This document shows, piece after piece, positions 3,694 through 29,300 of a stretch of DNA of 31,292 nt. The DNA lies in NCBI GenBank assembly GCA_964355955.1, contig CAYHFQ010000012.1, forward strand, positions 1 through 31,292. Direction: 5' to 3'. The stretch comes from an uncultured Gammaproteobacteria bacterium. Lineage in GTDB: Bacteria; Patescibacteriota; Patescibacteriia; UBA9934. The translations under genes and the position numbers were made by a program. Each line of letters starts with the position of its first letter. Position 1 is the first letter of the stretch. The notes below the pieces were generated by a model. It did not search any database. It was not told the DNA's origin and worked only from the letters and a program-made list of their open reading frames with translations.

Positions 3694-4200
3694 CTACCCG
3701 AGGATCGGGTAGGGGTCGGCCGGGTCGTCCCAGGCAAAAACGGGGATGCCGTTTCGCCTGGAGGAGGCGTTCTTGCCGAGGCGCATGAGTTGCACCCCGG
3801 AAAGGGTGAACCTGAGCTTGTGCTCCGTCCCTCCTCCGCCGTAGCCACCACTGCCCGGGGTGGGGTGGGACTCGAAGGTCCAGTCGATCGGCCCGGCGAA
3901 CCGGGCGACTTCCTGGATCCATTCTGCCGCGGCTTCCTCCGAGTGGAGCTTGACGCTCCCCTTGAGGTGGGCGATGCTCACCTGCTGGCCGTAGTGGCCA
4001 CGGGAGGTGACAATCTTGAGCGCGAAGTGCGCTCTAGGAAAGTGGACTTTGGCCTTCCCAGGCAGGCCCTCTTCATCGTCCCCGACGACGTCGGGGACCT
4101 CGATGCTCATGGGAGCACCGAGGTTTTTGTTGAGGAGCTGCGAGAGCTCCCCGACCAGGAAACGGGCGATGAAGGGGAGGTGGATGCGGATGGAAGCCAT
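3694..4200 (-). CDS. hypothetical protein (168 aa), island-1 orphan
   Basis: ATG 4200 has GAAGGAG 6 nt upstream. Third codon positions are almost all G/C. The + ORF 3598..4272 is a shadow. No family recognised. Confidence 0.65.
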   Translation of the reverse strand: MASIRIHLPFIARFLVGELSQLLNKNLGAPMSIEVPDVVGDDEEGLPGKAKVHFPRAHFALKIVTSRGHYGQQVSIAHLKGSVKLHSEEAAAEWIQEVARFAGPIDWTFESHPTPGSGGYGGGGTEHKLRFTLSGVQLMRLGKNASSRRNGIPVFAWDDPADPYPILG

Positions 4201-4317
4201 GATTGCTCCTTCGTGCATTTATGCACAGTGAGCGGCGCCGGGAGTGTTCCCGGTTCATGTATGCCGACCTGAGTAAATTAAACTCAGGATTTCGCGCTTT
4301 TGACGGGATGTCTAAGT

Positions 4318-4503: not shown

Positions 4504-6528
4504 CTAGCGGCGACCGAACTTGCCGAGGAGCAGGGCACGCTCCTCAGCGGACATGGCCCGAGGGGCGGGCTTCTCGGCCGGGGTGGCGGGGGTGGCTTTT
4601 GGCGCGACCGGCTTGCCGAGATTCCAGCCGTTGCCGACGGGGGGTGAGACGGTTCTGCCGGACATGCCGGTTTGACCGTCCCACTCCTTGGCGAGGTTCT
4701 GCTCGAGGTTGGCAACGGTTGCCCGTTGTGCCTCGGTCAGTCCCGCCAGGGGGAGCTTGACCACCTCGAAGCGGTGGTCCGCGGCGCGGTAGTTCTTGAA
4801 CCACCGCAGTGCCAACTCGCCGGCCTCGACTTGGTGCCAGGTGCGACCCTGGTCACCGTCGCGGAGCGAGCCGTCGGGGCGGACAACCCAGGCTTCAACG
4901 AACTTGTCGTCGGTCCTGTACCAGTTGCCGCCGGTGACCTTGAAGTTGGAAAGCGTTCCCGCCTTCGCTTCCTGGGCTCGCTCGGCTGCGACTCGCGCCT
5001 CTTCGGCAGCGACTCGTTCGGCCTCAACCCTGTTGGCTTCGCGTTGGGCCAATTCCTTTGCTTCGCGCTGGGCTTTGAGGGCTTCGAGGTCTGGCTTGAC
5101 CACCGTCTTCCAGTTCTCCAGTTTGACCCAGAGGCCGGAGACAGTTGTCTCGGTCGGCTCAGACTTACCCTCCCACTGGAGGTTGAGCGTCACGCCGTCC
5201 TTGCGGATGGCGAGCAACTCTCCCTCGTGGGTCTGCTCGAGGCTCATCCGCCCATCGTTCCGGAAGAACTGATGGACGGTGACGACCCGGCCGATCCACT
5301 CTGCGGGGATGGCGGCAAAGGGTGCCTGGCCCTTGGCAAGGTATGCCGCGGGATTGGCCGCGGCGTCCCGAGCTTGCCAAAGCTCGGTGGGCTCCGTGGA
5401 AAGGGTGCCACCCTCCCCACAGGAAATTGCCCAGCCCGGATTCCTGTAGGAACCGACGTTCAGGCTTTCACCTGCACGCAGTACCCACAACTCATCCGGA
5501 GTGGACTCGGCATGCCCCGCGGTGCCACCCGCGAAGTTGCCGGCGGCGAGACACGTCGGGTTGCCCCGAAGTATCTCGACCGATCGTGCGACCCGGTTGG
5601 TCAGGGGCGGAGCGATGCGAATGAGCACCGCGCCCGCCTCGATCTGCCCGCTCTGGGTGAGCCCGTAGATGACTTTCGTCTTTTTGGGTTCCCACGAGGG
5701 GGCTGCGACGGCCTGCTCCGAGAGCTTGGCAATCGCGACCGCCTCGAGCCGCTCACCGGGGGTGAACCCGATGATGGCGACCTGGGCCAGGACGCGACCG
5801 CGACCGGTCTCACCGAGCACGACTGCTGGGCCGGTGACGCCAGTCTTCACGCTGATGCCGGGGCGGATTTCGCCGCGTCCGACATAAGTGAAGGTCGACA
5901 TCGACCCGAAGGCCAGGTCGAGCGCTTGGCCTGTGGTTTCGGTCTCGGCAATCACTGCCTCGACCTGGGCCACGGCCACGAGCTGCTCGTAGTCCGCCCA
6001 GGGGCTGGTCTTGACGACCCCGGCTTCATCCACCCAGAGGGCGAAGGAGCTGGTGCCGTTGACCTCGCGGCTGGGGCGAACCTTCAAGACGTCGCCGGGG
6101 CGCATCTTGATGATGCCGTCGTTCCAGCTCCCGATGCGCCCGGCATCGCCGAATGCACCGAAACCGGAGATGAGGGTCTCCGGTGCGCCGGCCACGATGG
6201 ACCAGACGCCGCTTCCGCCGCGGATGTAGCTGGTGTAGGTGTTTACCCTCACCAAGCAGTCCCAGCCGCCGCCGGTGGTGGGGCGCTCCAGGACGTAAAA
6301 CGTCTTGGCGGGCTTGCCGCCGGACGCGGGGAGAGAAACCTTGCGAGGCATCGCCTCCAGGATCTTTCCGTCGACAATGTCGGCAGGGACTCGACGATCG
6401 AGCCCCACCTTTTCATATTGCCTCCCGCGACCTTCTTCGCCCAAGTAGATGACGGCGCCGAGGCGCTCGTCGGACTTGGTGGAAATCCCGGAGGAGAGGC
6501 GGCCTGCGGCCCAGGTGTAGGTTCTCAT
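4504..6528 (-). CDS. hypothetical protein (674 aa) with central Ala/Glu/Arg coiled coil, island-1 orphan
   Basis: ATG 6528 has AGGAG 7 nt upstream and GC3 is very high. The layout is a beta-rich N-terminal ~470 aa, a heptad-like KAQREAKELAQREANRVEAERVAAEEARVAAERAQEAK segment, a C-terminal ~150 aa, and a Pro/Lys/Ala tail. The 654-aa + ORF 4672..6636 is a shadow. Confidence 0.75.
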   Translation of the reverse strand: MRTYTWAAGRLSSGISTKSDERLGAVIYLGEEGRGRQYEKVGLDRRVPADIVDGKILEAMPRKVSLPASGGKPAKTFYVLERPTTGGGWDCLVRVNTYTSYIRGGSGVWSIVAGAPETLISGFGAFGDAGRIGSWNDGIIKMRPGDVLKVRPSREVNGTSSFALWVDEAGVVKTSPWADYEQLVAVAQVEAVIAETETTGQALDLAFGSMSTFTYVGRGEIRPGISVKTGVTGPAVVLGETGRGRVLAQVAIIGFTPGERLEAVAIAKLSEQAVAAPSWEPKKTKVIYGLTQSGQIEAGAVLIRIAPPLTNRVARSVEILRGNPTCLAAGNFAGGTAGHAESTPDELWVLRAGESLNVGSYRNPGWAISCGEGGTLSTEPTELWQARDAAANPAAYLAKGQAPFAAIPAEWIGRVVTVHQFFRNDGRMSLEQTHEGELLAIRKDGVTLNLQWEGKSEPTETTVSGLWVKLENWKTVVKPDLEALKAQREAKELAQREANRVEAERVAAEEARVAAERAQEAKAGTLSNFKVTGGNWYRTDDKFVEAWVVRPDGSLRDGDQGRTWHQVEAGELALRWFKNYRAADHRFEVVKLPLAGLTEAQRATVANLEQNLAKEWDGQTGMSGRTVSPPVGNGWNLGKPVAPKATPATPAEKPAPRAMSAEERALLLGKFGRR

Positions 6529-7126: not shown

Positions 7127-7305
7127 AGAGTTCGGAGGGATCGGGAAACTTGGTGGTGCACACCAGAGGTTTCCCGGGAGAGGGTGAGTGAAGTCAGCCA
7201 GTGACTCCGTGCCGTTCTGTCTAGCTCAGAAGACGTTGGCTAGAAGACCCGCGTGGCCTTTGGCGACTATTTATGTAAGCGCTGTCGTCGGCGCTGTGAA
7301 CCTTG
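7127..7305 (-). repeat. duplicated leader block, copy A (hairpin module copy 4 plus 113-nt conserved block 7193-7305)
   Basis: Hairpin TCGGGAAAC..GTTTCCCGG lies at 7141-7177. The block 7193-7305 matches 8501-8613 at 109/113 positions (my count; all four differences are transitions). Confidence 0.85.
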
Positions 7306-7689
7306 CCGATAGTTGACTCCGTAAGGTTGGGGTGGAAAAGCTGAAGGACGTCAGCTAACGCGATGAAGCAGTCATCTCTGGTCTCGCTGGTATCGAAACG
7401 GTGTAGCACCAGTGACCGTTGGGCCTTAACTACTTTTTATACCGCGCCGTAGTCAGCGCTTGGGTGTCGACGATTGCGACCTCCTTTGGGTTGGGGTTTT
7501 GGTATTGAGAATCAGGAAGATCCTCGATTGACGACTCGAATGTTCTCGGAATAGAGATTCAAGTGGTCGATAGAAGACCCCACCAACGCGATGTGCGTCG
7601 AGCTGGTGGGAAATTCGTGCTGTGACTTTGTTGTGGTTGGGGTGTGATGAACTTGAATAGGAGTCGTCACGTCTCCTGGGAGGCTGCGC

Positions 7690-8289
7690 CTACTGCGCGG
7701 TGGCCTCCTGGAGGGAGGCGAGCTCGGCCGTGAGCCGGGTCACCTCCTTCTTCGCGGAGAAGCCGCTGTACCCCTTTCCGCCCGTGAGGACGAGCTTGCG
7801 CTCGGCCTCGACCAGTGCGGACTTGGCTGCCGCGATCTTGCCGGCTGCCTGGTTCCTCGCGGCCAGTTTTTCGGCAGCGGCGAGGGCCGCCTCCTTCTCG
7901 TCGCGGCGGGCGACCGCGACCTTATGGTCGGCGCGGGCGGCCGTGAGGGCCGCTCCCACCTTGTCGGCGGGGACGGTGCCCACAGAACGGGGAGTGTTGC
8001 AGCACCGATACCAGCCGAGTTCCGTTTCCGCGTTGCGGAGCTTACGCTCCGCGACCAGAACCTGGGCCTCGGCGGCCGCGACCTGCGCGACCGGGGCCGT
8101 GAGGCGGTCCTCTACCGCCTCCGAAAACTCCACCTCCGCGGCCGTGACGGCCGCCTCGAGGTCGAGGGTCTTGGCCGCCGCCGCCACGCGGCGGTTGATC
8201 TCGGCCTCGAGGACGGCGATTTCGCTGGCGAGCAGGGACAGGAGGGGAGCCGCGACGATGGGGGAGGTGCTGGAGATAGATGCGGTCAT
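7690..8289 (-). CDS. Ala-rich coiled-coil protein (199 aa), island-1 orphan
   Basis: ATG 8289 has AGAGGG 5-6 nt upstream and GC3 is high. Long heptad-like Ala/Glu/Lys/Arg segments are interrupted by GWYRCCNTPRSVGTVPADK. The + ORFs 7700..8305 and 7924..8301 are shadows. Confidence 0.65.
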   Translation of the reverse strand: MTASISSTSPIVAAPLLSLLASEIAVLEAEINRRVAAAAKTLDLEAAVTAAEVEFSEAVEDRLTAPVAQVAAAEAQVLVAERKLRNAETELGWYRCCNTPRSVGTVPADKVGAALTAARADHKVAVARRDEKEAALAAAEKLAARNQAAGKIAAAKSALVEAERKLVLTGGKGYSGFSAKKEVTRLTAELASLQEATAQ

Positions 8290-8419
8290 GGGACCCTCTG
8301 ATTGAACGTTGAATGCAGTTGGACTGACGCTAGACATCGAACCGGCCAAATTGCCGATCACAACATTTTGCGTAAATCGTTCTGCGAACGCCCTCGAACT
8401 TCACGATTGGATCAATCAT

Positions 8420-8613
8420 GAGTTTTGAGGGAATCGGGAAACTTGGTGGTGCACACCAGAGGTTTCCCGGGAGATATCGAGTTGGCGCTCGATGCGCAGA
8501 GTCAGTCAGTGACTCCGTGCTGTTCTGTCTAGCTCAGAAGGCGTTGGCTAGAAGGCCCGCGTGGCCTTTGGCGACTATTTATGTAAGCGCTGTCGTCGGC
8601 GCTGTGAACCTTG
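8420..8613 (-). repeat. duplicated leader block, copy B (hairpin module copy 5 plus 113-nt conserved block 8501-8613)
   Basis: Hairpin at 8434-8470 is identical to copy A. Relative to A there is a 28-nt versus 13-nt indel between hairpin and block. The sequence continues as CCCTCAAAACTCATGATTGATCCAATCGTGAAGTTCGAGGGCGTTC on the minus strand. Confidence 0.85.
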
Positions 8614-9369
8614 AAGATGACTTTCTCCAGTGGGCGTATATTGCCCGGTGATGATCTCGCTTCCCGCAGCCTGGATTGACACAGATATGTGCCGTCGCGC
8701 TGGCTGGTGGAGTTAGAGATCGAGTGCTGTGTCGACGTCGACGTTGTACGGGCAGGATTGCCGGGTACTGTCAGCCGTGACTCTGCAGCGCTCTCGAACG
8801 TCACCAGCGAGTGATGAAGTTGGAGAGCCCCTGAAGTAGATGCGAGGCATCACTTCAGGGCTAGGTCCCGTCAACACGAGGGCTGACGGGACACGAGTTA
8901 CGTTGTTCGTAACGTGAAGTATAATTTCCACGGGTTCCTAATGGACGGGCTCGAGAGTTGGCGAATCGGCGCAGGGCGTCGTCGTCAGTCGAGTAACCGT
9001 CGCCGGAAGGGCGCAGATACTTCTGTGTGTTAACTCTTCAGTTGTGAAGGTTCAGTTCCTTTGCCACGGTGGCTAAGCCTTGCGGCTGTTGGTAAGGACT
9101 GCAGGAGGTTCAAAACTGTTTTGAACTCCCGCGCACTCATTACCACGGTTATTTTCTCTGTTGTAACCGGGGGAAGTCTGGTGTGTTGGCCGAGCGTACT
9201 CAGTTACCACTTGCCAGGTTCCGACGTTCCGGCGGAGCCGGAGTGAGAACATAGGTGCTATCGAGTAAAAGTCTCTCTCACCCACTGTGGGGAATTGGCC
9301 TCGAGGGACCAGCTTTTGCTCAATGTCAGCTATGTGAGGGCCTTTTGTTCTCAAGCCTTGCGGCGAGAA
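8614..9369 (-). other. ORF-free, hairpin-dense segment (candidate long structured leader or ncRNA)
   Basis: No ORF over 93 aa on any frame, and none has an SD or island-like GC3. Many perfect stems are present: CCCTGAAGT/ACTTCAGGG 8829-8860, GTCCCGTCA/TGACGGGAC 8866-8891, GTTACG/CGTAAC, and GGTTCAAAAC/GTTTTGAAC ~9107-9127. Two GCC-GCAA-GGC GNRA-capped hairpins lie at 9079-9088 and 9356-9365. Confidence 0.35.
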
Positions 9370-10540: not shown

Positions 10541-12975
10541 GTAGCCTTCTTTTCAAAAACAAAGGCACGCTTTGTCTTGTCTTTGTTTGGCATGTAAAAG
10601 CGTGTTGCTACAAAACCTTTGTCAAACATTTGTTTGCAATACTCAACCATATCTGAAGATTGTGACGGAAGAGAGAAAATGACCGGTGTTTGTTTATTTT
10701 TTGTCATCTCTGATTTTTCTTGATATTTAGTATTTTCTTTGTCATTACGACGTATTTTGAAGCGCAGAGTATTTTGACCAACTGAATCTACGCCGTTGAT
10801 AACGAATTTTTGGTCTTCTACATATGAAGTGCCAGCATCAAGGCCGATAGCGAAATCTGCTAATATGGTGTGTTTTTCGGCTAATGGCTTGAGCACTTCG
10901 TAGAAAAGTTGTTTGCCAAGACCAGAATCTTGAAGTGCTGGATCTACATTCAACGATCCTGCATAAAGTGCGTTTGGTTCTAAGCCTGGTACGTCGTCGA
11001 TACGGATAAAAGCCGCAATTTTGTCATGATATAAAATCATGGTGAAGGTTGAAGGAACATCTCCGGCGAGCGCGTGTTCCATTTTTTCACGTACTCGGGT
11101 AAATTCTGAAGATGACTTCATTTTCCAATTGTCATCAAAGATACGGTACAGATCCTTCTGTTCAAGATCTGTAAGCTCTACTCCTCGACGTTGCAGGAAA
11201 TTAACCCCCTGTAGATTTTCGATAGATAATTGACCTTCTTTGCCAACTGTACGGAGCGAAGAACCGAAAAGAGCCAGGTCGGTATTGCGACGAGCGAGGT
11301 CTTGTTTGAAGGTATCGAGCGTGGGTTTATCTTGTAGCGTGGCGGTGCGGGCTACGTCCTCCATGGCTGTGATGGCGCTGGCGACACGGCGGGTGAGTTC
11401 GTATTTGGCAACGCGACCTTGCTCGGGGGTCATTTGGCCTAAAGTGACGGCGGCAGCGACTTCGGCTAGCATTTGGCGACGGGTGCTACCAGCTTCGATG
11501 ACAGATTCGGCCAGTAAGGTGGCTTCGCTGGTGCGGAGTTCGGCAGCTACACGGAGATATTCGCGAGCGATATCTGGGAGGTCGGCGATTTCAGCGATGC
11601 TTTGGAGACCGGGTTCACCAATCTCTTTGGTGAGAGTGATAATTTGTTCGGTGTAGGGTGCGAGTTTGCTGATATTGCGGCGGAAGTGTTCGCGGGTAGC
11701 TAGGGGGAGGGCTTGGTCGACGTCGAGGCTGGCAGCACGGAGTTCATTATTGAAACCAGCCCAGACTGTTAGATTGTCGATAGCAGCTTTTAGTTCAGGG
11801 TTTTGGGCGGTGTCGACTAAATCGAGTAGGGTTGATTGGGTGAGTTCGACAGGTGCAGCGTAGCTGAGGGCGCCTTGGCCGTTATCGTAAGTTGTGAGCC
11901 GGGCGTCGCCTTTACGGAAGCGATTGATGAGAGAAATAGGCGTGAGGACGCCGTCTTCGTCGAGGACGATGGCCGACTGTTCGGGCGTGAGCTGCTCAAC
12001 CCGGACGGTGTGACCACCGAAGGCTCGACCAAGATTGTGTTTGACGCCGTCTATAGAGAGTAGACCTTTTGATGTGACAAGGCTTGCTTCGAGGCGGGTG
12101 CGAGTTTGGTGACGAGAGGCGGTGAAGTCGCTGTCACGAAGGAGACCTTCGGTGAAGAGGGTGGGGCAGTATTCTTTGAGGGCGGCGAGGGGGCGATCGA
12201 AGAGTAGTCCAGTGGATTTTTCGTTGCCTAGAGCTAGGCCTGGTTGAGCTCGAAACCAGTCGGCTGTTAGGGTATGACGTTTACCATCGTGATAGCGAAC
12301 CTCGAGTTTACCTTGGGCGTTGCGCTTAGCGTCACCAAATTTGGGGTTATATAAAATGGCCGCGACGGCAGTTTCTAAGGCTTTAGAATTATCGAGGGTA
12401 CGAGGAGCTGTAGCTGTTTTAATATCTTTTTTAGATAACCAGTCGGGTAATTCCCAGTAGCCTAAATGAAAGTCAGCGGCCTTGATGGCGTCGACGTCAA
12501 AGGCTTGTTCTTTGGTTTGGGGAGAGTAGACGAGTTGTTTAGCACCGTTTTCTGGTTTGTTGCGTAGTGTAACCGGTTCATCGCCAAAAGCATTAGCTAG
12601 GTAGTCGCCGCGGGTCCGTGAGAATGATTGGCCGTTTTCTGGGACAAAATCGGCGAATTTATGTTTGTTAAAGCGTTCTAGAGAAAAACCGTTTTTTGTT
12701 AGGAATGTGCCTTGCGTCAAGCGATGTTTAACCTGAGCAGAAAATTCAGTACGGGTTATTTTACCGGTTAAGATTTTGGCGATGTCTCGACCTTGAGGGA
12801 CTTCGCCACGCTCTACAGCGGCTTGAAGAAAATGAGTGAGTTCGGTGATGACCTCGGGGCCATAGTCGGCGGCGAGAGCATCAAACATTTGGCCAATATC
12901 TTTGGCTTTAGGTTTCTCTGGAGTGGGAGCGCGTTCTGCGCGACCAAAGCGCTGAGTACCGACCCATAATTCCAT
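10537..12975 (-). CDS. large hypothetical protein (812 aa) with C-terminal GNAT-like acetyltransferase fold motif
   Basis: The C-terminal ~170 aa contain AFIRIDDV..LYAGSLNVDPALQDSGLGKQLFYEVLKPLAEKH, which resembles GNAT motif A (Q/R-x-x-G-x-G/A). I do not recognise the N-terminal ~600 aa. Confidence 0.6.
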   Translation of the reverse strand: MELWVGTQRFGRAERAPTPEKPKAKDIGQMFDALAADYGPEVITELTHFLQAAVERGEVPQGRDIAKILTGKITRTEFSAQVKHRLTQGTFLTKNGFSLERFNKHKFADFVPENGQSFSRTRGDYLANAFGDEPVTLRNKPENGAKQLVYSPQTKEQAFDVDAIKAADFHLGYWELPDWLSKKDIKTATAPRTLDNSKALETAVAAILYNPKFGDAKRNAQGKLEVRYHDGKRHTLTADWFRAQPGLALGNEKSTGLLFDRPLAALKEYCPTLFTEGLLRDSDFTASRHQTRTRLEASLVTSKGLLSIDGVKHNLGRAFGGHTVRVEQLTPEQSAIVLDEDGVLTPISLINRFRKGDARLTTYDNGQGALSYAAPVELTQSTLLDLVDTAQNPELKAAIDNLTVWAGFNNELRAASLDVDQALPLATREHFRRNISKLAPYTEQIITLTKEIGEPGLQSIAEIADLPDIAREYLRVAAELRTSEATLLAESVIEAGSTRRQMLAEVAAAVTLGQMTPEQGRVAKYELTRRVASAITAMEDVARTATLQDKPTLDTFKQDLARRNTDLALFGSSLRTVGKEGQLSIENLQGVNFLQRRGVELTDLEQKDLYRIFDDNWKMKSSSEFTRVREKMEHALAGDVPSTFTMILYHDKIAAFIRIDDVPGLEPNALYAGSLNVDPALQDSGLGKQLFYEVLKPLAEKHTILADFAIGLDAGTSYVEDQKFVINGVDSVGQNTLRFKIRRNDKENTKYQEKSEMTKNKQTPVIFSLPSQSSDMVEYCKQMFDKGFVATRFYMPNKDKTKRAFVFEKKAT

Positions 12976-14493: not shown

Positions 14494-14847
14494 TTAGAGG
14501 GTTATATTGTTGATGAAAGAGTTTAACATGCGCATTGTTTCACTGAGTAGTTCCTCGATCCGTTGTTTTGTGTTTTTTGATAAATACCCGAAATCTTTTG
14601 CTAGAATTAATTGTGTTTCTAATTCAGCTCCCGATCCGTAAGCTATGTAAAGAAATTTTCTGAAGTCTTTTTGACTTCCTCGTCGTGATCCTTCTGCAAT
14701 ATTACTTGGGATAGATATTGAAGCACGTCGCATTTGAGAAGTTAGTCCAAATCTTTCATGATGAGGAAAGGTGTTCGTCAACTGATAAACTTCGCGACAA
14801 ACATCCATGCTCTTTTGCCAAATCAGTAATTCATTATAGGCAGCCAT
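14494..14847 (-). CDS. four-helix-bundle protein (the family formerly called 23S rRNA intervening-sequence protein)
   Basis: 117 aa. LIWQKSMDVCREVYQLTNTFPHHERFGLTSQMRRASISIPSNIAEGSRRGSQKDFRKFLYIAYGSGAELETQL is the characteristic family pattern. Confidence 0.85.
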   Translation of the reverse strand: MAAYNELLIWQKSMDVCREVYQLTNTFPHHERFGLTSQMRRASISIPSNIAEGSRRGSQKDFRKFLYIAYGSGAELETQLILAKDFGYLSKNTKQRIEELLSETMRMLNSFINNITL

Positions 14848-15461: not shown

Positions 15462-15615
15462 TTCGCTCGCAACTGACGGATTATCCTATTCCTAGCTGCG
15501 CCTCGTCAACCGTACCAGCCGTCTCACCTCGTATGACTCGGGCGCTGGTACAGGGCCGAGGCTGGCGTCGTCATAGGACAACCCGCCAGCTGCTCGCTCC
15601 TACAAGGCTCAGGCT
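15462..15615. repeat. palindromic intergenic repeat family, copy 2 (5'-truncated)
   Basis: Same core as copies 1 and 3, in the same orientation, in the divergent tdk/GT4 intergenic region. Confidence 0.8.
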
Positions 15616-22440: not shown

Positions 22441-22630
22441 GTCTTTGCGAGCATCAGCGAAGCAATCAAGGCGTATCGCTCGCGATTGCCACATCTCCTA
22501 TTCCTAGCTGCACCTCGTCAACCGTGCCAGCTGGCTCACCTCGTCTGACTCGGGAGCTGGCACAGGGCCGAGGCTGGCGTCGTCATAGGAGATGTGGCAA
22601 CCGCTGCCCCACTCTACAAGCCTCAGGTTC
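22441..22630. repeat. palindromic intergenic repeat family, copy 3 (best outer stem)
   Basis: The 13-nt arms CCACATCTCCTAT / ATAGGAGATGTGG enclose the conserved core. It starts 10 nt from the GT4 ATG. Confidence 0.8.
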
Positions 22631-25249: not shown

Positions 25250-25646
25250 AATTGGTGTTCAGGGGGAGCCGATAAGCCGGATTTTGTCATGGACGGTAAT
25301 CTCTCTAGGCCCACGATTGCTCGGGGGCTCAGGCGAACGACCAAACTTGTTCTTGCACCAAGACGGGTTTGCCACAACTCCGTGTCACCACGGGTTGACC
25401 ACTGTAGCGACATAACTGCTATGTCACACCAGTAGACTTTTCACGTTTCACTCGGTCATTGCTGACCGGGCTAGTATAGTCTCTGTGGTACTTTCCCTAG
25501 GCTTTGCGTCTTGCGACGTTTATACCCGATCGCCGTTAGCGATGTCTTTTGGCCCGTAACCTTACGGCTATGGAGGTGTCCGGACTTTCCTCTTGATGGA
25601 GTCGCAAGCGGCTCGCACAAGTAACCGTCTAGCTACCCTGAACGCT
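25250..25646 (-). ncRNA. rnpB: RNase P RNA, bacterial type A
   Basis: Minus strand carries GAGGAAAGTCCGGACACCTCCATAG (25592-25568; compare E. coli GAGGAAAGUCCGGGCUCCAUAG). It also carries ACAAAATCCGGCTTATCGG (25286-25268; compare ACAGAACCCGGCUUAUCGG). The P1 pairing is GTTCAGGG (25643-25636) with CCCTGAAC (25263-25256). Confidence 0.9.
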
Positions 25647-25649
25647 GCG

Positions 25650-25678
25650 AGTATAGCAAAAATTAGTTGTTTTGTAAA
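25650..25678 (-). promoter_or_regulatory. rnpB promoter TTTACA-17-TATACT with TGc extended -10
   Basis: I counted the spacer AAACAACTAATTTTTGC as 17 nt. The predicted TSS coincides with the start of P1. Confidence 0.7.
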
Positions 25679-25705
25679 GCAAATTCCCCAGGCGGAGCTG
25701 GGGAA
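25676..25705 (-). terminator. intrinsic terminator ending the island-2 operon; overlaps the rnpB -35
   Basis: Minus strand reads TTCCCCA-gctccgcc-TGGGGAA followed by TTTGCTTT. Confidence 0.6.
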
Positions 25706-25777
25706 TGAGACGGGCCACAGTCGTTCGCGAACGACGTGGCGGGTGTTCAGCGCGATTACATCGGCTGAACGAGACGG

Positions 25778-25864
25778 TTACGGGGAGTGGCGAGAGCGCC
25801 AGATGACGATGGCGAGGCCAAGCACCACGGCGGCGGCTAGCCAGTAGTCAGCAGCAGTGCGCAT
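25778..25864 (-). CDS. possible 28-aa single-TM micropeptide (MRTAADYWLAAAVVLGLAIVIWRSRHSP)
   Basis: Hand-translated and below the ORF-track cutoff. It overlaps the end of the 58-aa ORF in another frame. It has a hydrophobic core and a basic tail. I saw no clear SD. Confidence 0.25.
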   Translation of the reverse strand: MRTAADYWLAAAVVLGLAIVIWRSRHSP

Positions 25865-26013
25865 TCGGCCACCTCCTCTTCGGGGCTACAGGCGTCCCAG
25901 TCGTCGAGGGTCAACTCGTGAACTCGGCCATCGGCGTGGTGGATGGTAGCCTGGCCGCCTGGTCCGACTACGACCAGGTAGCTGGTCGACGACTTGATCT
26001 TGTCGTCGCTCAT
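25837..26013 (-). CDS. small acidic hypothetical protein (58 aa), island 2
   Basis: ATG 26013 overlaps the upstream stop as ATGA (26013-26010), which suggests translational coupling. GC3 is high. Confidence 0.5.
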   Translation of the reverse strand: MSDDKIKSSTSYLVVVGPGGQATIHHADGRVHELTLDDWDACSPEEEVAECALLLTTG

Positions 26014-26528
26014 GAGCCCACCTGCTGAACCACGTTCTTGCCGGTGGCGATGTCCCAGTAGCGGATCTGCTCGATCAGTCCCGACCAATCCTTGACCGAG
26101 GCCCAAGCAATCTTGGGGCAATCCTCGGGGTCGACGAGCAACAGCAGGTCGGCCGGGACGTTCGGGTAGATCGAAACTTCCTGCCTAGAGCCACTGGCCG
26201 CGAGATGTCGAGGATGGAAAGGGCCCTCGTTATCCCAGACATCGTGGTGCCGGGCGTCGCCGATGATCTCGAGCTTGGCGTTGTCGCCGAACTTGAGGCC
26301 CTTGCCGAGGTCGAGTTCGGTGAGCCTGGCCTCGCCTTGGGTGGCGGTGACGACGATGGCGGCGACCTGGCCGTGGGCGCGACACTCCTCAGCCGTGTTT
26401 GGCGTGAAGCTGACGGTCAGGATGGCCGGCAAGGTGTTGGTGGCGACGAAGCTCGGGTCGATCTCACCGTCAACCGGTGCGCAGGAGGTGGCGAGGCCGA
26501 GGGAAAGGGCGAGGATGAAGTTGCGCAT
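26010..26528 (-). CDS. putative lipoprotein (172 aa), island 2
   Basis: ATG 26528 has GGAGG 5 nt upstream. The signal peptide is MRNFILALSLGLATSC with a relaxed lipobox. The track N-terminal extension crosses the leader repeat. Confidence 0.65.
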   Translation of the reverse strand: MRNFILALSLGLATSCAPVDGEIDPSFVATNTLPAILTVSFTPNTAEECRAHGQVAAIVVTATQGEARLTELDLGKGLKFGDNAKLEIIGDARHHDVWDNEGPFHPRHLAASGSRQEVSIYPNVPADLLLLVDPEDCPKIAWASVKDWSGLIEQIRYWDIATGKNVVQQVGS

Positions 26529-26580
26529 GGGCGCCTCCGAAAGGGGGTGAGGGGTGGGTGGTGAATTTAGGGAGGGAATG

Positions 26581-26656
26581 TCCGCCCTTCGCTGCGCATG
26601 AGCCTTTGATGTTGGAGCTCGTGAACAAGGAAGGGCCGGCCGAGTGTGAGAACTCG
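26581..26656 (-). repeat. island-2 structured leader element, copy 1
   Basis: Minus strand reads CCGAGT-tctcac-ACTCGG, GCCGGCCCTTCCTTGTTCACGAGC...GCTCATGCGCAGCGAAGGGCGGA. P1 is CCCTTC/GAAGGG and encloses a CACGAGC hairpin. Confidence 0.75.
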
Positions 26657-26682
26657 ACGGGACTTGCGGGTGGATGATGAGC

Positions 26683-27078
26683 TCAAGCATTGATGTAACA
26701 CTTGAGGACATCGGTGGCGGCCCTGCTCAACGTCGCGGCGTCGGGCCGGAAATTGCCAGTGGGGCCGAGCACGGAGTCGATGGTGCCGTCGGAGTTGTCG
26801 TCGCCCAGGTGGAGGGTGACGAAGCCGCCGACGTCGCCGTTCGTGTTCTGCACGGTCATGATGAGGTAGAGCGTGCGCAGGCCGTTGTCGCGAACGGTGA
26901 GGCCGACGCTGTTGCTCAAGCCGACTGGGCAGTCGAAGCTGTCAAAGTAGTCGGTGGCACCGTTGACCGCAATGGCTCGGCTGGTGCTGCTCAGCTTGAG
27001 ATCCGCGGCGGCAGCGAGCGCGCTCGGCACAGTGGGTTGGCCGGCGGCGAGGGCGAGGGTGACGAGGGTGGGAATCAT
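26683..27078 (-). CDS. small secreted protein (131 aa, two Cys), island 2
   Basis: GGAG lies 6 nt upstream. The signal-like N-terminus is MIPTLVTLALAAGQPTVPSALAAAAD. GC3 is near-saturated. Confidence 0.65.
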   Translation of the reverse strand: MIPTLVTLALAAGQPTVPSALAAAADLKLSSTSRAIAVNGATDYFDSFDCPVGLSNSVGLTVRDNGLRTLYLIMTVQNTNGDVGGFVTLHLGDDNSDGTIDSVLGPTGNFRPDAATLSRAATDVLKCYINA

Positions 27079-27109
27079 GGGTGCTCCAGAGTTTCAGGGA
27101 AGAGTGATT

Positions 27110-27176
27110 TCCGCCCTTCGCTGGGCACGAGATAGGCTCGTGAACAAGGAAGGGCCGGCCGAGTGTGAGAACTCGG
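27110..27176 (-). repeat. island-2 structured leader element, copy 2
   Basis: Nearly identical to copy 1 outside the inner loop. It abuts the stop codon of the 66-aa gene. Confidence 0.75.
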
Positions 27177-27377
27177 CTAGAGGGAGGCGACAGCGGGGCT
27201 GGTGGGAGCAGGACGGTAGAAGTCCTCCAGACCGGCGTCGTCGCGGTAGATCTGCCAGATGGCAGGGAGAGCTGGCGTGGACTCGGCCGGGATGGCGCCG
27301 AGATCGATGACGACCGGGGCGCTGGCCATGGGCTTGGTGGAAGTGCAGGCCAAAAGGGCAAGGATAAGAAGGGTCAT
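27177..27377 (-). CDS. small lipoprotein (66 aa), island 2
   Basis: MTLLILALLAC has a canonical L-L-A-C lipobox. GGAG lies 9 nt upstream. Confidence 0.6.
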   Translation of the reverse strand: MTLLILALLACTSTKPMASAPVVIDLGAIPAESTPALPAIWQIYRDDAGLEDFYRPAPTSPAVASL

Positions 27378-27412
27378 GGGGTGGCTCCGGTGGCTGGTAG
27401 GGAAGATTGATT

Positions 27413-27488
27413 TCCGCCCTTCGCTGAGCGCGAGAATGGCTCGTGTTCAAGGAAGGGACGGGTAGGTGCGAGAAGGCGCACACTACCC
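27413..27488 (-). repeat. island-2 structured leader element, copy 3 (divergent first hairpin)
   Basis: The core CCCTTCCTTGAACACGAGC..CTCAGCGAAGGGCGGAAATCA is conserved. The upstream hairpin is replaced by GGGTAGTGTGCGCC..GCGCACCTACCC. Confidence 0.7.
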
Positions 27489-27510
27489 AGAACGCGGCTC
27501 ACTGGTGGCC

Positions 27511-27690
27511 CTAGAAGAGGCCAGCCACGAAGTGCCAGGCGAGGGCGATGTCGGTGACGAAGTTGGTGCTGGCGGCGAGCGCGATGCTCGCGTAGGCCAG
27601 GATGATGATCAACATCATGCGGGTTTGACCGCTGGTGATGATGTTGTCGTTGCCGAGGGTGTCGAAGTATGTGACCGGGGTGTTGGACAT
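27511..27690 (-). CDS. small membrane protein (59 aa), island 2
   Basis: ATG 27690 has GGAG 9 nt upstream. A polar 24-aa N-terminus precedes the hydrophobic MMLIIILAYASIALAAS..IALAWHFVAGLF. Confidence 0.5.
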   Translation of the reverse strand: MSNTPVTYFDTLGNDNIITSGQTRMMLIIILAYASIALAASTNFVTDIALAWHFVAGLF

Positions 27691-27823
27691 GGCGGGTGCT
27701 CCGGGAGTTGGTGGGCTGTTCGGCTGCGGAAATGCAGACCGGTGATGCGCAGAACCCGAGGAGACGGGTGGGTTCTGCACACGGCCGGTGCGGCCTCAGT
27801 GAGAGGCCGCGGTGGCGACGAGA

Positions 27824-28228
27824 TCAGCTGCGGTTGTCCGGCAGCTGCCAGCGCCCATCGACTTCCACCAGCTTGATGGGGTGGTCGGCGCACCAGGGCA
27901 AGACCTGGCTCGGCTGCGTGGGTTTGTAGCTCGCGAAGTCGTGGCAGATGTCGCCGACGATGGGGCGCTCTGTCGGGAAGAGGAGCATGCCCACGATGCC
28001 GCCGATGGCTGCGCAGATCATGACTGCCAGGCCGAGGACTGGCCAGGAGAAGATGTCCCAGCTCGTGTACAGGGTCGAGGCGACGCCGATGATGGCACCG
28101 ACCAGCGCACCGATGAAGGACCGGCGGTTGAAGACCGGGATCAGCAGGTCGATGACGAAGAACGTGAAGATGGTGAGGAACAGAAAGACGGTGGTGATGA
28201 CGATGCCGAGGAGGCGAAGAAGGCGCAT
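27824..28228 (-). CDS. integral membrane protein (134 aa, about 3 TM) with Cys/Trp-containing C-terminal tail, island 2
   Basis: ATG 28228 has GGAG 6 nt upstream. GC3 is near-saturated in this frame only. The competing ORFs 27615..28265 (-) and 27812..28255 (+) are Pro/Arg/His- or Asp/Gly-rich shadows. Confidence 0.65.
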   Translation of the reverse strand: MRLLRLLGIVITTVFLFLTIFTFFVIDLLIPVFNRRSFIGALVGAIIGVASTLYTSWDIFSWPVLGLAVMICAAIGGIVGMLLFPTERPIVGDICHDFASYKPTQPSQVLPWCADHPIKLVEVDGRWQLPDNRS

Positions 28229-28265
28229 GGAGACTCCGGGGGTTTGGGGGGATAGTAGCCCACAT

Positions 28266-28294
28266 ATAATAGCAAAAAATGGCCTGTTTGTCAA
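28266..28294 (-). promoter_or_regulatory. sigma70 promoter TTGACA-17-TATTAT (TGc extended -10) driving island 2
   Basis: I counted the spacer AACAGGCCATTTTTTGC as 17 nt. The -35 hexamer sits in the loop of the trpS terminator. Confidence 0.65.
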
Positions 28295-28302
28295 GCCATT
28301 TT
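28272..28302 (-). terminator. trpS intrinsic terminator
   Basis: Minus strand reads AAAATGGC-ttgacaaacag-GCCATTTT followed by TTGC. Confidence 0.6.
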
Positions 28303-28316
28303 GAGCTAAATTTGCT

Positions 28317-29300
28317 TTAGGTTAGCAACATTCCCATTTTCTGTTTGGCCTCCTGAACCTTCTTTTTGGCTAAAATGTCGGCCTTAACGCTACCTTGACG
28401 GAGAAGCTCGATGAGGGCTGGTTCGTCCGCTAACAGCAGGTTAATTTTGCTTTGCAGGGGAAGGAGGAAGGCAATGATGGCCTCGGCGAGATCCGTTTTG
28501 AGGTACTTGGCCCCGAGATTCTCGTACTTGAGGGCGAGGTCGGCAGCTTGAGTACCAGTGACGAGAGAGAAGATGGTGAGGAGGTTGTAGAGGCCGGGGC
28601 GGTTGGGGTCGAGAGTAATATGTGGGTCGCTGTCGGTGACGGCGGACATGATCTTTTTGGTGATGACGTCAGCGTCGTCCATGAGGGAGATGTAGCTTTT
28701 GGCGTTCGGGGCACTCTTGCTCATTTTCTTCTCCGGTTCGGTTAAGGACTTGAGGCGAGCGCCGGTAGTTCGGATGAGGGGTTTGGGGACAATGAAGGTT
28801 GGGCCGAAGTCGCGGTTGAAACGTTCGGCGAGATCGCGGGCTAACTCGACGTGTTGCTTTTGGTCTTCGCCGACTGGAACAGTAGCAACGTCGTAGAGGA
28901 GAATATCGGCGGCCATGAGAATAGGGTAGGTGAAGAGGCCGACCGAGACATTTTCGCCTTTGCCGGTCGCCTTGTCCTTGTACTGCGTCATGCGTTCCGC
29001 TTCACCCATGCGGCAGACGGTTTGCAAGAGCCAAGCGAGTTCGGCGTGCGCGGGTACGGTGGATTGCTGCCAGAGGATGGTTTTGTTGGGGTCGACGCCA
29101 GCAGCTAAGTAAGTGGCGGCCAGGAAGAGAATGTTTTTGCGTAAGGCGGCCGGGTCTTGCGGCACGGTGATGGCGTGTAAGTCCACGATCATCATGAGGA
29201 GCTCCGAGGAGTCCTGAAGTTCCAGCGCGGGCAAGATGGCGCCGAAGTAGTTGCCGAGGTGGAGGATGTTGGTGGGCTGAATGCCGGTGATGGTACGCAT
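28317..29300 (-). CDS. trpS: tryptophan--tRNA ligase
   Basis: 327 aa. It has TGIQPTNILHLGNYFGA (HIGH-type motif) and KMSKS, with a typical TrpRS length. Confidence 0.92.
   Translation of the reverse strand: MRTITGIQPTNILHLGNYFGAILPALELQDSSELLMMIVDLHAITVPQDPAALRKNILFLAATYLAAGVDPNKTILWQQSTVPAHAELAWLLQTVCRMGEAERMTQYKDKATGKGENVSVGLFTYPILMAADILLYDVATVPVGEDQKQHVELARDLAERFNRDFGPTFIVPKPLIRTTGARLKSLTEPEKKMSKSAPNAKSYISLMDDADVITKKIMSAVTDSDPHITLDPNRPGLYNLLTIFSLVTGTQAADLALKYENLGAKYLKTDLAEAIIAFLLPLQSKINLLLADEPALIELLRQGSVKADILAKKKVQEAKQKMGMLLT

Follow-up and report, generated by a model that had tools for sequence, protein, structure and literature searches.

Introduction

Clusters of genes for small lipoproteins and membrane proteins are familiar from the vlp/vsp loci of Mycoplasma and the vsp/vlp loci of Borrelia, and arrays of short open reading frames (ORFs) separated by imperfect palindromes are familiar from integrons and from clusters of attC sites lacking an integrase (CALINs). 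Stable hairpins between cistrons are known from the RNase III sites of phage T7 and from the repetitive extragenic palindromic (REP) elements of Escherichia coli, and genomic islands beside genes for tRNA, tmRNA and other stable RNAs. Here we compare with these systems a block of seven small genes, g1 to g7, that lies between trpS and rnpB (RNase P RNA) in contig CAYHFQ010000012.1, a 31,292-nt stretch of DNA that is referred to as the window. Positions are those of the window, and labels of the form L0xx denote loci in the other genomes compared. The proteins and spacers of the block are new families; the phenomenon is a variant of a familiar one, in which a surface-protein locus of a reduced symbiont genome is variable and rich in orphans.

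Bacteria of the Candidate Phyla Radiation (CPR), or Patescibacteria, are tiny and likely symbiotic. Their genomes encode many small membrane and secreted proteins that lack annotation, and variable regions rich in orphans are common in genomes of this type. To our knowledge, little is known about how CPR cells recognise and attach to their hosts.

The original prediction, made from the letters of the window, described the block as an island of six or seven tiny minus-strand ORFs wedged into this genome between trpS and rnpB. All seven ORFs were found at the predicted sizes, but the island had to be given up, because at least four related lineages carry a homologous operon at the identical junction. 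On the comparative sequence evidence given below, we hold with moderate confidence that the block is a lineage-specific, hypervariable cell-envelope operon, i.e. one transcription unit ancestral to a small clade of Uhrbacteria-related Patescibacteria.

Gene content of the block

The block occupies 25641-28316 on the minus strand. From trpS to rnpB, its boundaries and genes are as follows, with GC3 denoting the GC content at third codon positions.

28317-29300, trpS (PF00579)
27824-28228 (-), g1, 134 amino acids (aa), three hydrophobic segments, C-terminal tail of ~45 aa with two Cys, GC3 0.90
27511-27690 (-), g2, 59 aa, one transmembrane (TM) segment, GC3 0.93
27177-27377 (-), g3, 66 aa, LLAC lipobox (MTLLILALLAC), proline-rich (8 Pro), putative lipoprotein
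26683-27078 (-), g4, 131 aa, hydrophobic N-terminus, Cys50 and Cys127
26010-26528 (-), g5, 172 aa, predicted lipoprotein, ATSC lipobox (MRNFILALSLGLATSC), Cys49 and Cys137
25837-26013 (-), g6, 58 aa, acidic (11 D+E versus 3 K+R), no hydrophobic segment
25778-25864 (-), g7, 28 aa, one TM segment, basic C-terminus
25256-25640 (-), rnpB, downstream boundary (Rfam RF00010, 140 bits, E 3e-43)

The lipobox pattern [LVI][ASTVI][GAS]C is present in g5 and g3. With signal peptide and lipobox, g5 is a predicted lipoprotein, and g3, in which the n-region has no basic residue, probably carries a lipoprotein signal peptide. The products of g1, g2 and g7 are predicted to be membrane-embedded, and that of g6 is probably cytoplasmic, as it has no hydrophobic segment. 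The paired invariant Cys residues of g4 and g5 are consistent with extracytoplasmic disulfides, and a DsbA gene lies ~5 kb from the block. The view of the block as an operon of small membrane proteins, lipoproteins and putatively exported proteins is thus supported by the TM segments of g1, g2 and g7 and by the lipoboxes of g3 and g5.

A GGAG Shine–Dalgarno motif, which had been ascribed to every gene, was found 5-9 nt before the ATG of six genes and is missing from g6. The start codon of g6 overlaps the stop codon of g5 (ATGA), and this 4-nt overlap is retained in L090, L094 and L096. The reading frame of g7, at first offered as a mere possibility, starts 28 nt inside g6 and gained support from the same three lineages, in which its length (26-28 aa) and pattern are conserved and the overlap of g6 and g7 amounts to 22-34 nt. 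Since g5, g6 and g7 appear to be translationally coupled in four lineages, the arrangement suggests that they form a stoichiometric unit.

Public gene calls (ENA contig k141_313628 and apparently the NCBI record as well) place antisense ORFs instead of g1 and g4:

27812-28255 (+), 147 aa, over g1
26674-27135 (+), 153 aa, over g4

These antisense ORFs show a mirrored composition, with GC content at first codon positions (GC1) of 0.79-0.88 and GC3 of ~0.6. They are shadows and the minus-strand genes are the real ones, because the codon-position GC is mirrored and the minus-strand genes are conserved across species. The locus is thus also a clear annotation trap: two of its seven genes have been placed on the wrong strand in public annotation.

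Homologous operons at the trpS–rnpB junction

The window was placed in the CPR by its neighbouring genes (T4SS-type pilin, DsbA, SecG, RNase J, a glycosyltransferase cluster and DUF4012) and by the best trpS matches, its trpS being 57-68% identical to those of Candidatus Uhrbacteria and other Patescibacteria metagenome-assembled genomes (best among the matches listed). Relatives within the clade were recovered via exact-protein look-ups. A homologous operon sits at the same trpS–rnpB junction in at least four lineages (L087, L090, L094 and L096), which together with the window makes five, and every member of the g5 family on a long enough contig is located there. The shared order starts with trpS and the common terminator/promoter motif. 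It continues with small TM genes (one or two), additional small genes and the homolog of g5, in most cases g6 and g7 (both absent in L087), and a terminator; in the relatives the operon is usually followed by a separate gene of 200-265 aa, then rnpB and Bac_transf.

The 3′ part of the operon is the more conserved. The first gene, g1, is the positional counterpart of the relatives' first gene, and its similarity to the first genes of L096 and L094 is weak (31% over 51-74 aa, pairwise E 4e-6 to 1e-4 with composition correction off). No homolog of g2 was detectable in the relatives' loci, and none of g3, which is specific to the window's lineage. Homologs of g4 occur in L087 (P0003, 54%) and L090 (37%), with Cys50 and Cys127 invariant, and P0003 was the single g4 homolog found in a search of 5.8 billion proteins. 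In g5 the lipobox Cys is invariant in seven homologs and the two further Cys are invariant as well; its conserved positions (three Cys, QG, FG, W, PR, DC, Y-D) are scattered along the protein. The question of whether the small ORFs are conserved is accordingly answered in part: g4 to g7 are kept across lineages, but g2 and g3 have no counterpart.

Among the matches listed, the operon is absent only in relatives with trpS 57-61% identical to that of the window, i.e. distant Uhrbacteria. In two of these, L011 and L015, trpS and rnpB are directly adjacent, with gaps of 48-90 nt that hold the terminator and the rnpB promoter; in L010, L012, L029 and L016, 0.7-1.4 kb of unrelated genes lie between them; and in L007-L009 rnpB is not within 6 kb. 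The junction is an old neighbourhood and a variable spot, because in distant relatives the two genes are adjacent, interrupted by unrelated genes, or apart. Since the closer relatives carry the homologous operon at the same place, we take the operon, on its distribution, to be ancestral to a small Uhrbacteria-like clade and not a recent foreign insert.

The additional gene of 200-265 aa, which is missing in the window, is an orphan with its own promoter, situated between the operon terminator and rnpB. It evolves fast (25-44% identity) and has a GC3 of 0.74-0.86. Its positions, in the coordinates of each locus, are:

L087, 1752-2429
L090, 8889-9581
L094, 3264-4061
L096, 10876-11481

Divergence of the operon and its flanks

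Between the window and L096, the flanking proteins are 92% (trpS), 98% (RNase J), 97% (Bac_transf) and 97% (glycosyltransferase) identical in amino acid sequence, compared with 41-44% for g5, 60% for g6 and 75% for g7, and the first genes are barely alignable. In a 60-column identity profile of the same pair, identity is 100% over the promoter, falls to ~30% from 28253 and returns to 83-100% in rnpB, with local rises over the first spacer and over g5-g7.

Nonsynonymous (dN) and synonymous (dS) divergence was estimated for this pair by the Nei–Gojobori method. The flanks gave dN of 0.021-0.052 and dS of 0.64-0.73, while g5 gave dN 0.50 and dS 0.72, g6 dN 0.27, and a family of TM proteins of 121-125 aa found in some of the operons (TM125) dN 0.36-0.48. 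The dS of the operon itself was not lower in closer pairs (1.08, 0.70), and because it is saturated or compressed by the GC3 bias, the dS of the flanks was used as yardstick. On this scale the gene-wide ratio omega is ~0.8 for g5, ~0.5 for g4, ~0.4 for g6 and 0.5-0.7 for the TM125 family, compared with 0.03-0.09 for the flanks; the operon proteins gain amino acid changes roughly 10-25 times faster than the flanks. Two close pairs of g5 gave dN/dS of 0.16 and 0.34, which shows that the genes are coding and constrained, and in close comparisons the operon genes are under purifying selection.

The order of similarity in g6 and g7 matches the flank tree, in which the window and L096 are closest, and L094 is the most distant lineage both in g5 and in the flank tree. 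Because the similarity orders follow the flank tree, vertical descent with fast divergence is favoured over repeated replacement from outside.

The possibility that g5 is the target of a diversity-generating retroelement was rejected, its conserved positions being spread and no hypervariable tail of the type made by such elements being present. No reverse transcriptase was found in the window, and the bAvd-like ORF at 14494-14847 (-) belongs to the 23S_rRNA_IVP family (PF05635, E 3e-41; the bAvd-like match is weak). A diversity-generating retroelement does occur in L090, between rnpB and Bac_transf (L090 10066-14078, with RVT_1 and a bAvd accessory gene). Its 128-nt repeat pair (11458-11585 and 11896-12023) is 85% identical, with the second copy at the end of a 728-aa PcfJ-like gene, and the operon genes are not targeted.

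Transcription signals and sequence stability

The signals that bound the block are the following.

28276-28302 (-), terminator-like hairpin of trpS, AAAATGGC...GCCATTTT plus a T run, 11-pair stem
28294-28266 (-), operon promoter, TTGACA, 17 nt, TG-n-TATTAT (extended -10), 11/12 matches in the promoter scan
25683-25777 (-), 3′ untranslated region, two hairpins and then a terminator-like hairpin at 25706-25683
25678-25650 (-), rnpB promoter, TTTACA, 17 nt, TG-n-TATACT

The promoter and terminator predicted to bound the block were both recovered by the scan. The -35 element of the operon promoter sits inside the loop of the trpS terminator hairpin, and the tail of the hairpin at 25706-25683 reaches into the rnpB -35 at 25678. 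No convincing internal promoter was found in a scan of the block. The terminator/promoter motif next to trpS is also present in L087, L090 and L094, the promoter is kept in all five lineages, and the segment 28313-28254, which includes the promoter, is 100% identical between the window and L096. The first ~40 nt of the 3′ untranslated region are identical in L090.

DNA of the block recurs at 99.99-100% identity in contigs of five independent samples, including a contig of 1.09 Mb, so that an assembly chimera, which would have undone the original prediction, is excluded. The sole single-nucleotide polymorphism between samples, at 27168, lies in hairpin 1 of the repeated spacer element upstream of g4 described below, and it is also the only difference over 15.3 kb between the window and assembly ERZ27287891. 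Because the strain is identical in five samples, the block is not a hypermutation or phase-variation system.

Stem-loop elements in the spacers

Three spacers of the window are copies of one element of ~90 nt (type 1), and a different element (type 3) follows the first gene:

27704-27814 (-), type 3, after the first gene, three hairpins including a 13-bp central stem
27395-27483 (-), type 1 copy a, upstream of g3
27091-27180 (-), type 1 copy b, upstream of g4, holds the polymorphism at 27168
26564-26666 (-), type 1 copy c, upstream of g5, with an orthologous copy in L087, L090 and L089

Each type-1 copy forms two hairpins, the second being longer and interrupted (GCCCUUCC..CACGAG-loop-CUCGUG..GAAGGGC); the z-scores range from -2.7 to -4.2. 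Type 1 is also found at orthologous and other intergenic positions in L087, L089, L090 and L096. Its core is 69-90% identical between genomes, versus 48-56% for the g5 coding sequence in five of the six genome pairs; only the close pair L087/L089 departs from this, with 71% for the core and 73% for g5. At least three unrelated sequence versions of hairpin 1 exist, and both versions present in the window fold into a hairpin. Hairpin 2 is unlikely to be coding, because its terminal loop varies by 10 nt.

In the type-3 stem, pairing holds in 94% of cells, and changes on both sides are seen in 8 of 21 pairs; double changes numbered 4.2±1.2 in shuffles and at most 2 in slid controls. This supports maintenance of the stem by compensatory changes. 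The element is 78% identical to that of L096, versus 32% for the adjacent coding sequence. Pairing kept in evolution was thus found between these cistrons for type 3, and type 1 is uninformative on this point. A further element, type 2 (CCCCCG...CGGGGG), stands in place of type 1 or beside it in L088, L090, L094 and L096.

In the 1.03 Mb of loci compared, ~100 kb of which is own-clade DNA outside the operon, all three types were found only inside the operon. They are not canonical terminators, because none is followed by a U tract. In Rfam searches the gathering score was reached by rnpB alone, and a permissive scan of 25600-28350 gave noise at E>2. A scan of viral contigs with the type-1 pattern gave no match, and a single match in metagenome contigs was judged to be chance, as it lies in a GC-rich contig with ORFs unlike those of the operon. 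This set of operon-specific elements with a three-copy spacer had been overlooked in the original prediction, as had the rate contrast and the coupling of g5, g6 and g7.

Two other non-coding repeats were observed elsewhere in the window. An intergenic repeat of ~130 nt occurs in three copies (542-671, 15464-15593 and 22476-22605; 72-88% identity), with a nearly invariant, self-complementary core of ~100 nt (UCCUAU...GCCAGCC...GGCUGGC...AUAGGA); it has no Rfam match at gathering score and may be a structured non-coding RNA or a REP-like element. A direct repeat of 119 nt (7192-7310 and 8500-8618, 95% identity) flanks the orphan ORF 7690-8361 (-) in the first GC-rich island of the original prediction, and is another case of conserved non-coding repeats around a GC-rich orphan gene.

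Database and structure searches

The original prediction had recognised none of the proteins, and they are indeed orphans: g1 to g7 have no significant match in Pfam, NCBIfam, PHROGs or PADLOC, with zero PADLOC matches at E up to 0.1 for all seven, which speaks against a known anti-phage defence system. A match of g1 to Bacteriocin_IIc is very weak and below threshold (E 0.058). Pfam gave nothing for the relatives' extra genes (TM125 and the 200-265-aa family), and no paralogs of the operon genes or of these extra genes were found elsewhere in the window. A full HMMER scan of 1.84 billion cluster representatives returned five full-length members of the g5 family, the query included; with P0011, added by profile search, and the L087 copy, the family comprises ~8 known sequences. 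A word-indexed homology search with g5 returned g5 alone, profiles of the g5 and g4 families found nothing significant among PDB sequences, and nothing in phage and plasmid collections was matched by the block in blastn. A scan of 23 window ORFs detected neither an integrase nor any other recombinase domain. We found no literature on this locus or on rnpB-adjacent islands in CPR.

An AlphaFold2 model of g5, built from a six-sequence alignment, is mostly β with ~11 strands (pLDDT 76, pTM 0.70), and the predicted fold is a β-sandwich. Resemblances of the model to jelly-rolls, to carbohydrate-binding modules CBM32/35 and to TRAP-β are generic and uninterpretable at E >=5e-3 and TM-score <=0.35. 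The g4 model, from an alignment of two sequences, is unusable (pLDDT 40).

Interpretation as an envelope operon

Under the envelope-operon interpretation, a fixed promoter within the trpS terminator would drive all seven small genes. The variable 5′ part (g1-g4) would supply membrane proteins and small lipoproteins or exported proteins, and the conserved 3′ core would be the β-sandwich lipoprotein g5, coupled to the acidic g6 and the 28-aa membrane peptide g7. The products would lie on the outer side of the membrane, where the neighbouring DsbA would oxidise them, and would form a surface module under diversifying selection from contact with host cells or phages. The stem-loops may determine how the polycistronic mRNA is processed or how stable it is, and may incidentally supply homology for the deletion and duplication of cassettes. 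Diversifying selection at a cell–cell or phage interface would be the most economical account of the rates, because near-neutral protein rates are combined with conserved structural residues and conserved expression signals.

Several points weigh against this interpretation. The persistently high GC3 is not explained by it. The omega values at deep divergence assume vertical descent, the dS of the operon being saturated or compressed, and the localisation of the products is derived by simple sequence rules, with the N-terminal regions of g3 and g4 lacking positive charge and the g4 signal being atypical. The Foldseek search of the g5 model against PDB and BFVD gave no informative fold match (best E 5e-3, TM-score <=0.35). 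With regard to the spacers, hairpin 2 of type 1 is nearly invariant, so that covariation offers no evidence that it is an RNA structure, and a site in DNA or one for protein binding would fit equally well. Moreover, the restriction of the elements to the operon is judged on ~100 kb of own-clade DNA outside it.

The locus is a compact, well-bounded case in which a fixed promoter and non-coding elements frame proteins that change near-neutrally, and the conserved core of lipoprotein, mini-protein and micro-peptide is a candidate complex. If contact with host or phage drives the diversification, the operon is a candidate specificity determinant for the clade, and if the spacers are functional, they represent a new family of RNA or DNA motifs. 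The contrast between conserved spacers and hyperdivergent genes is the most notable part.

Base composition and origin of the block

The GC3 of g1-g7 is 0.76-0.93 versus 0.31-0.73 for backbone genes (0.61 for ribosomal protein L19), and the GC content of the block is 0.63 versus ~0.55. The shift begins directly downstream of the promoter, in agreement with its predicted position at the transcription start site. The near-saturated GC3, which had been called unlike the backbone, is real but less extreme than described, as the genes immediately flanking the block have a GC3 of 0.66-0.73. The operon has a GC content of 0.60-0.63 and, in its main genes, a GC3 of ~0.83-0.91 in all five lineages, compared with 0.57-0.74 for flanking genes. 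Thus the relatives, in which a backbone-like composition would have marked the genes as ancestral core genes, carry the same genes at the same place but with GC3 equally elevated. High expression is unlikely to be the cause of the excess, because L19 has only 0.61; a GC-rich ancient donor with incomplete amelioration is possible, and so is local GC-biased gene conversion at a recombination hot spot.

An ancient horizontal acquisition would address this composition directly: the block would have come once, at the base of the clade, from a GC-rich donor (e.g. a high-GC host bacterium or its mobile elements), inserting immediately 3′ of the promoter that rnpB then had, and would still be only partly ameliorated. 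The elevated GC3 of all lineages is in its favour, as is the direct adjacency of trpS, promoter and rnpB in the distant L011 and L015, and at a flank dS of ~0.65-0.8 amelioration would indeed be incomplete. The two promoters that bound the block are 73% identical over 33 nt, which is compatible with a duplication at insertion; however, such similarity is expected from the promoter consensus of the organism, and the separate promoters of L090 and L094 are alike too, so that this 33-nt flanking repeat was rejected as a target-site duplication. Furthermore, no donor was found: all homologs among the 1.84 billion representatives belong to the clade, the block matches no DNA of phages or plasmids, and recombinase domains are missing among the scanned ORFs. 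We therefore consider this origin unlikely, though it deserves to be kept in mind. It concerns the origin of the block only, and is compatible with an envelope operon as its present function.

Other orphan ORFs of the window, at 3694-4218 (-), 4504-6528 (-) and 7690-8361 (-), have a GC3 of 0.80-0.85 and no Pfam domain, and show no sequence similarity to the operon genes or to the relatives' extra genes. High GC3 may be tied to orphan genes genome-wide. The ORF at 14494-14847 (-), with a GC3 of only 0.31, is an outlier in the direction opposite to the operon.

Gene turnover upstream of g5

No two lineages have the same set of genes before g5. TM125 occurs in L090, L094 and L096 but in neither the window nor L087; g4 is shared by the window, L087 and L090 and is missing from L094 and L096; and L094 has two extra genes of 158 and 180 aa. 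The order in L090 is type 1, TM125, type 2, g4, type 1 plus type 2, g5, and that in L096 and L094 is type 1, TM125, type 2, g5. We infer that recombination between the two type-2 elements of an L090-like ancestor, with loss of what lies between them, would leave the latter order.

A bolder possibility, to which we assign a low probability, is that the three stem-loop types are a new class of cis-element marking exchangeable cassettes, by which envelope proteins would be reshuffled and differentially expressed behind a single fixed promoter in an integron-like manner, independently of an integrase. If true, it would also explain why the elements are conserved better than the genes they separate.

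As an integron-like array without integrase (CALIN), the block would use its spacers as attC-like sites, at which promoterless ORFs are captured and shuffled downstream of a single promoter. The architecture fits, with one promoter followed by small orphan ORFs of the same orientation that are separated by imperfect palindromes of 60-110 nt with variable terminal loops, and the differences in cassette content between lineages map onto the spacers. However, the outer stems, GCCCTTC/GAAGGGC in type 1 and CCCCCG/CGGGGG in type 2, lack the R''/R' boxes (RYYYAAC ... GTTRRRY). The 23 window ORFs scanned contain no integrase domain, no integrase is annotated in the relatives' loci of 10-20 kb, the differences in gene order can be explained by ordinary homologous recombination between repeats, and the strain is invariant in five samples. 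An array of this kind is very improbable.

Lysis cassette, recent island and spurious ORFs

Small TM proteins and lipoproteins also bring to mind a remnant of a phage lysis, bacteriocin or immunity cassette, in which the TM proteins would be holin-like or immunity proteins, g3 spanin-like and g5-g7 accessory. The fit is superficial and consists of several tiny TM proteins, a 66-aa lipoprotein with 8 Pro, and the sub-threshold match of g1 to Bacteriocin_IIc. No endolysin, toxin, peptidase or ABC exporter lies in or beside the block, no significant PHROG or PADLOC match and no phage DNA match was obtained, and the spacer motif is found in no viral contig. In addition, g3 is absent from all relatives and the conserved part is g5-g7; moreover, spanins function in diderm envelopes, and CPR are not known to have an envelope of that kind, which also counts against a spanin-like g3. 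We give this possibility very little weight.

A recent genomic island of this strain or species, the view implicit in the original prediction, would explain the composition shift right after the promoter, the orphan proteins and the position next to a stable RNA gene, but it is scarcely credible given homologous operons at the identical junction in four lineages with a flank dS of ~0.64-0.8, the lack of mobility genes, and promoter, terminator and spacers conserved across lineages. No att-type direct repeats flank the block, the only flanking repeat being the 33-nt promoter similarity.

That the genes are spurious or decaying ORFs in a non-coding GC-rich spacer, as the strand conflicts over g1 and g4 in automatic annotation and the lack of any homolog of g2 and g3 might suggest, is hardly tenable and is already contradicted for g1 and g4-g7, in view of the strong third-position GC periodicity in the proposed frames with its mirror pattern antisense (GC1 0.79-0.88), the GGAG motif in six of seven genes, the close-pair dN/dS of 0.16-0.34, and the conservation of g4-g7 across lineages with invariant Cys, Gly and Trp.

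Comparison with known systems

The locus resembles each of the nearest described systems in part and differs from each. Islands beside tRNA, tmRNA or other stable RNA genes share with it a compositionally deviant block of orphans, here abutting rnpB, and a junction that holds unrelated genes in other genomes, here the distant L010, L012 and L029. Unlike such islands, the block has no integrase, att-type repeats or mobility genes, and is inherited clade-wide instead of being strain-specific.

Integron arrays and CALINs share with the operon the single upstream promoter, the short orphan ORFs of the same orientation, and imperfect palindromes between ORFs that have a conserved base and a variable tip. 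In contrast to integrons, the operon lacks the R''/R' consensus of attC, and neither the window nor the relatives' loci yielded an IntI-type integrase; and unlike attC sites, in which only structure is conserved, the operon elements fall into three types conserved in sequence. They recall instead the T7 RNase III sites and E. coli REP elements, which are likewise stable intercistronic hairpins with internal loops and no U tract, conserved independently of the coding sequence. Unlike the REPs, which are spread genome-wide, the elements are limited to one operon, as far as ~100 kb of own-clade DNA shows, and belong to no Rfam family.

The vlp/vsp loci of Mycoplasma and the vsp/vlp loci of Borrelia resemble the operon in being clusters of small lipoproteins and membrane proteins that outpace the genome, in the reduced, host-dependent type of genome and, presumably, in an external selective agent. 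The operon differs from them in having no silent cassettes, tandem coding repeats, invertible promoters or homopolymer switches, and its proteins have no sequence or fold similarity to these surface-lipoprotein families. Moreover, it shows no variation within the strain in five samples; its variation lies between lineages, and arises by substitution and gene turnover.

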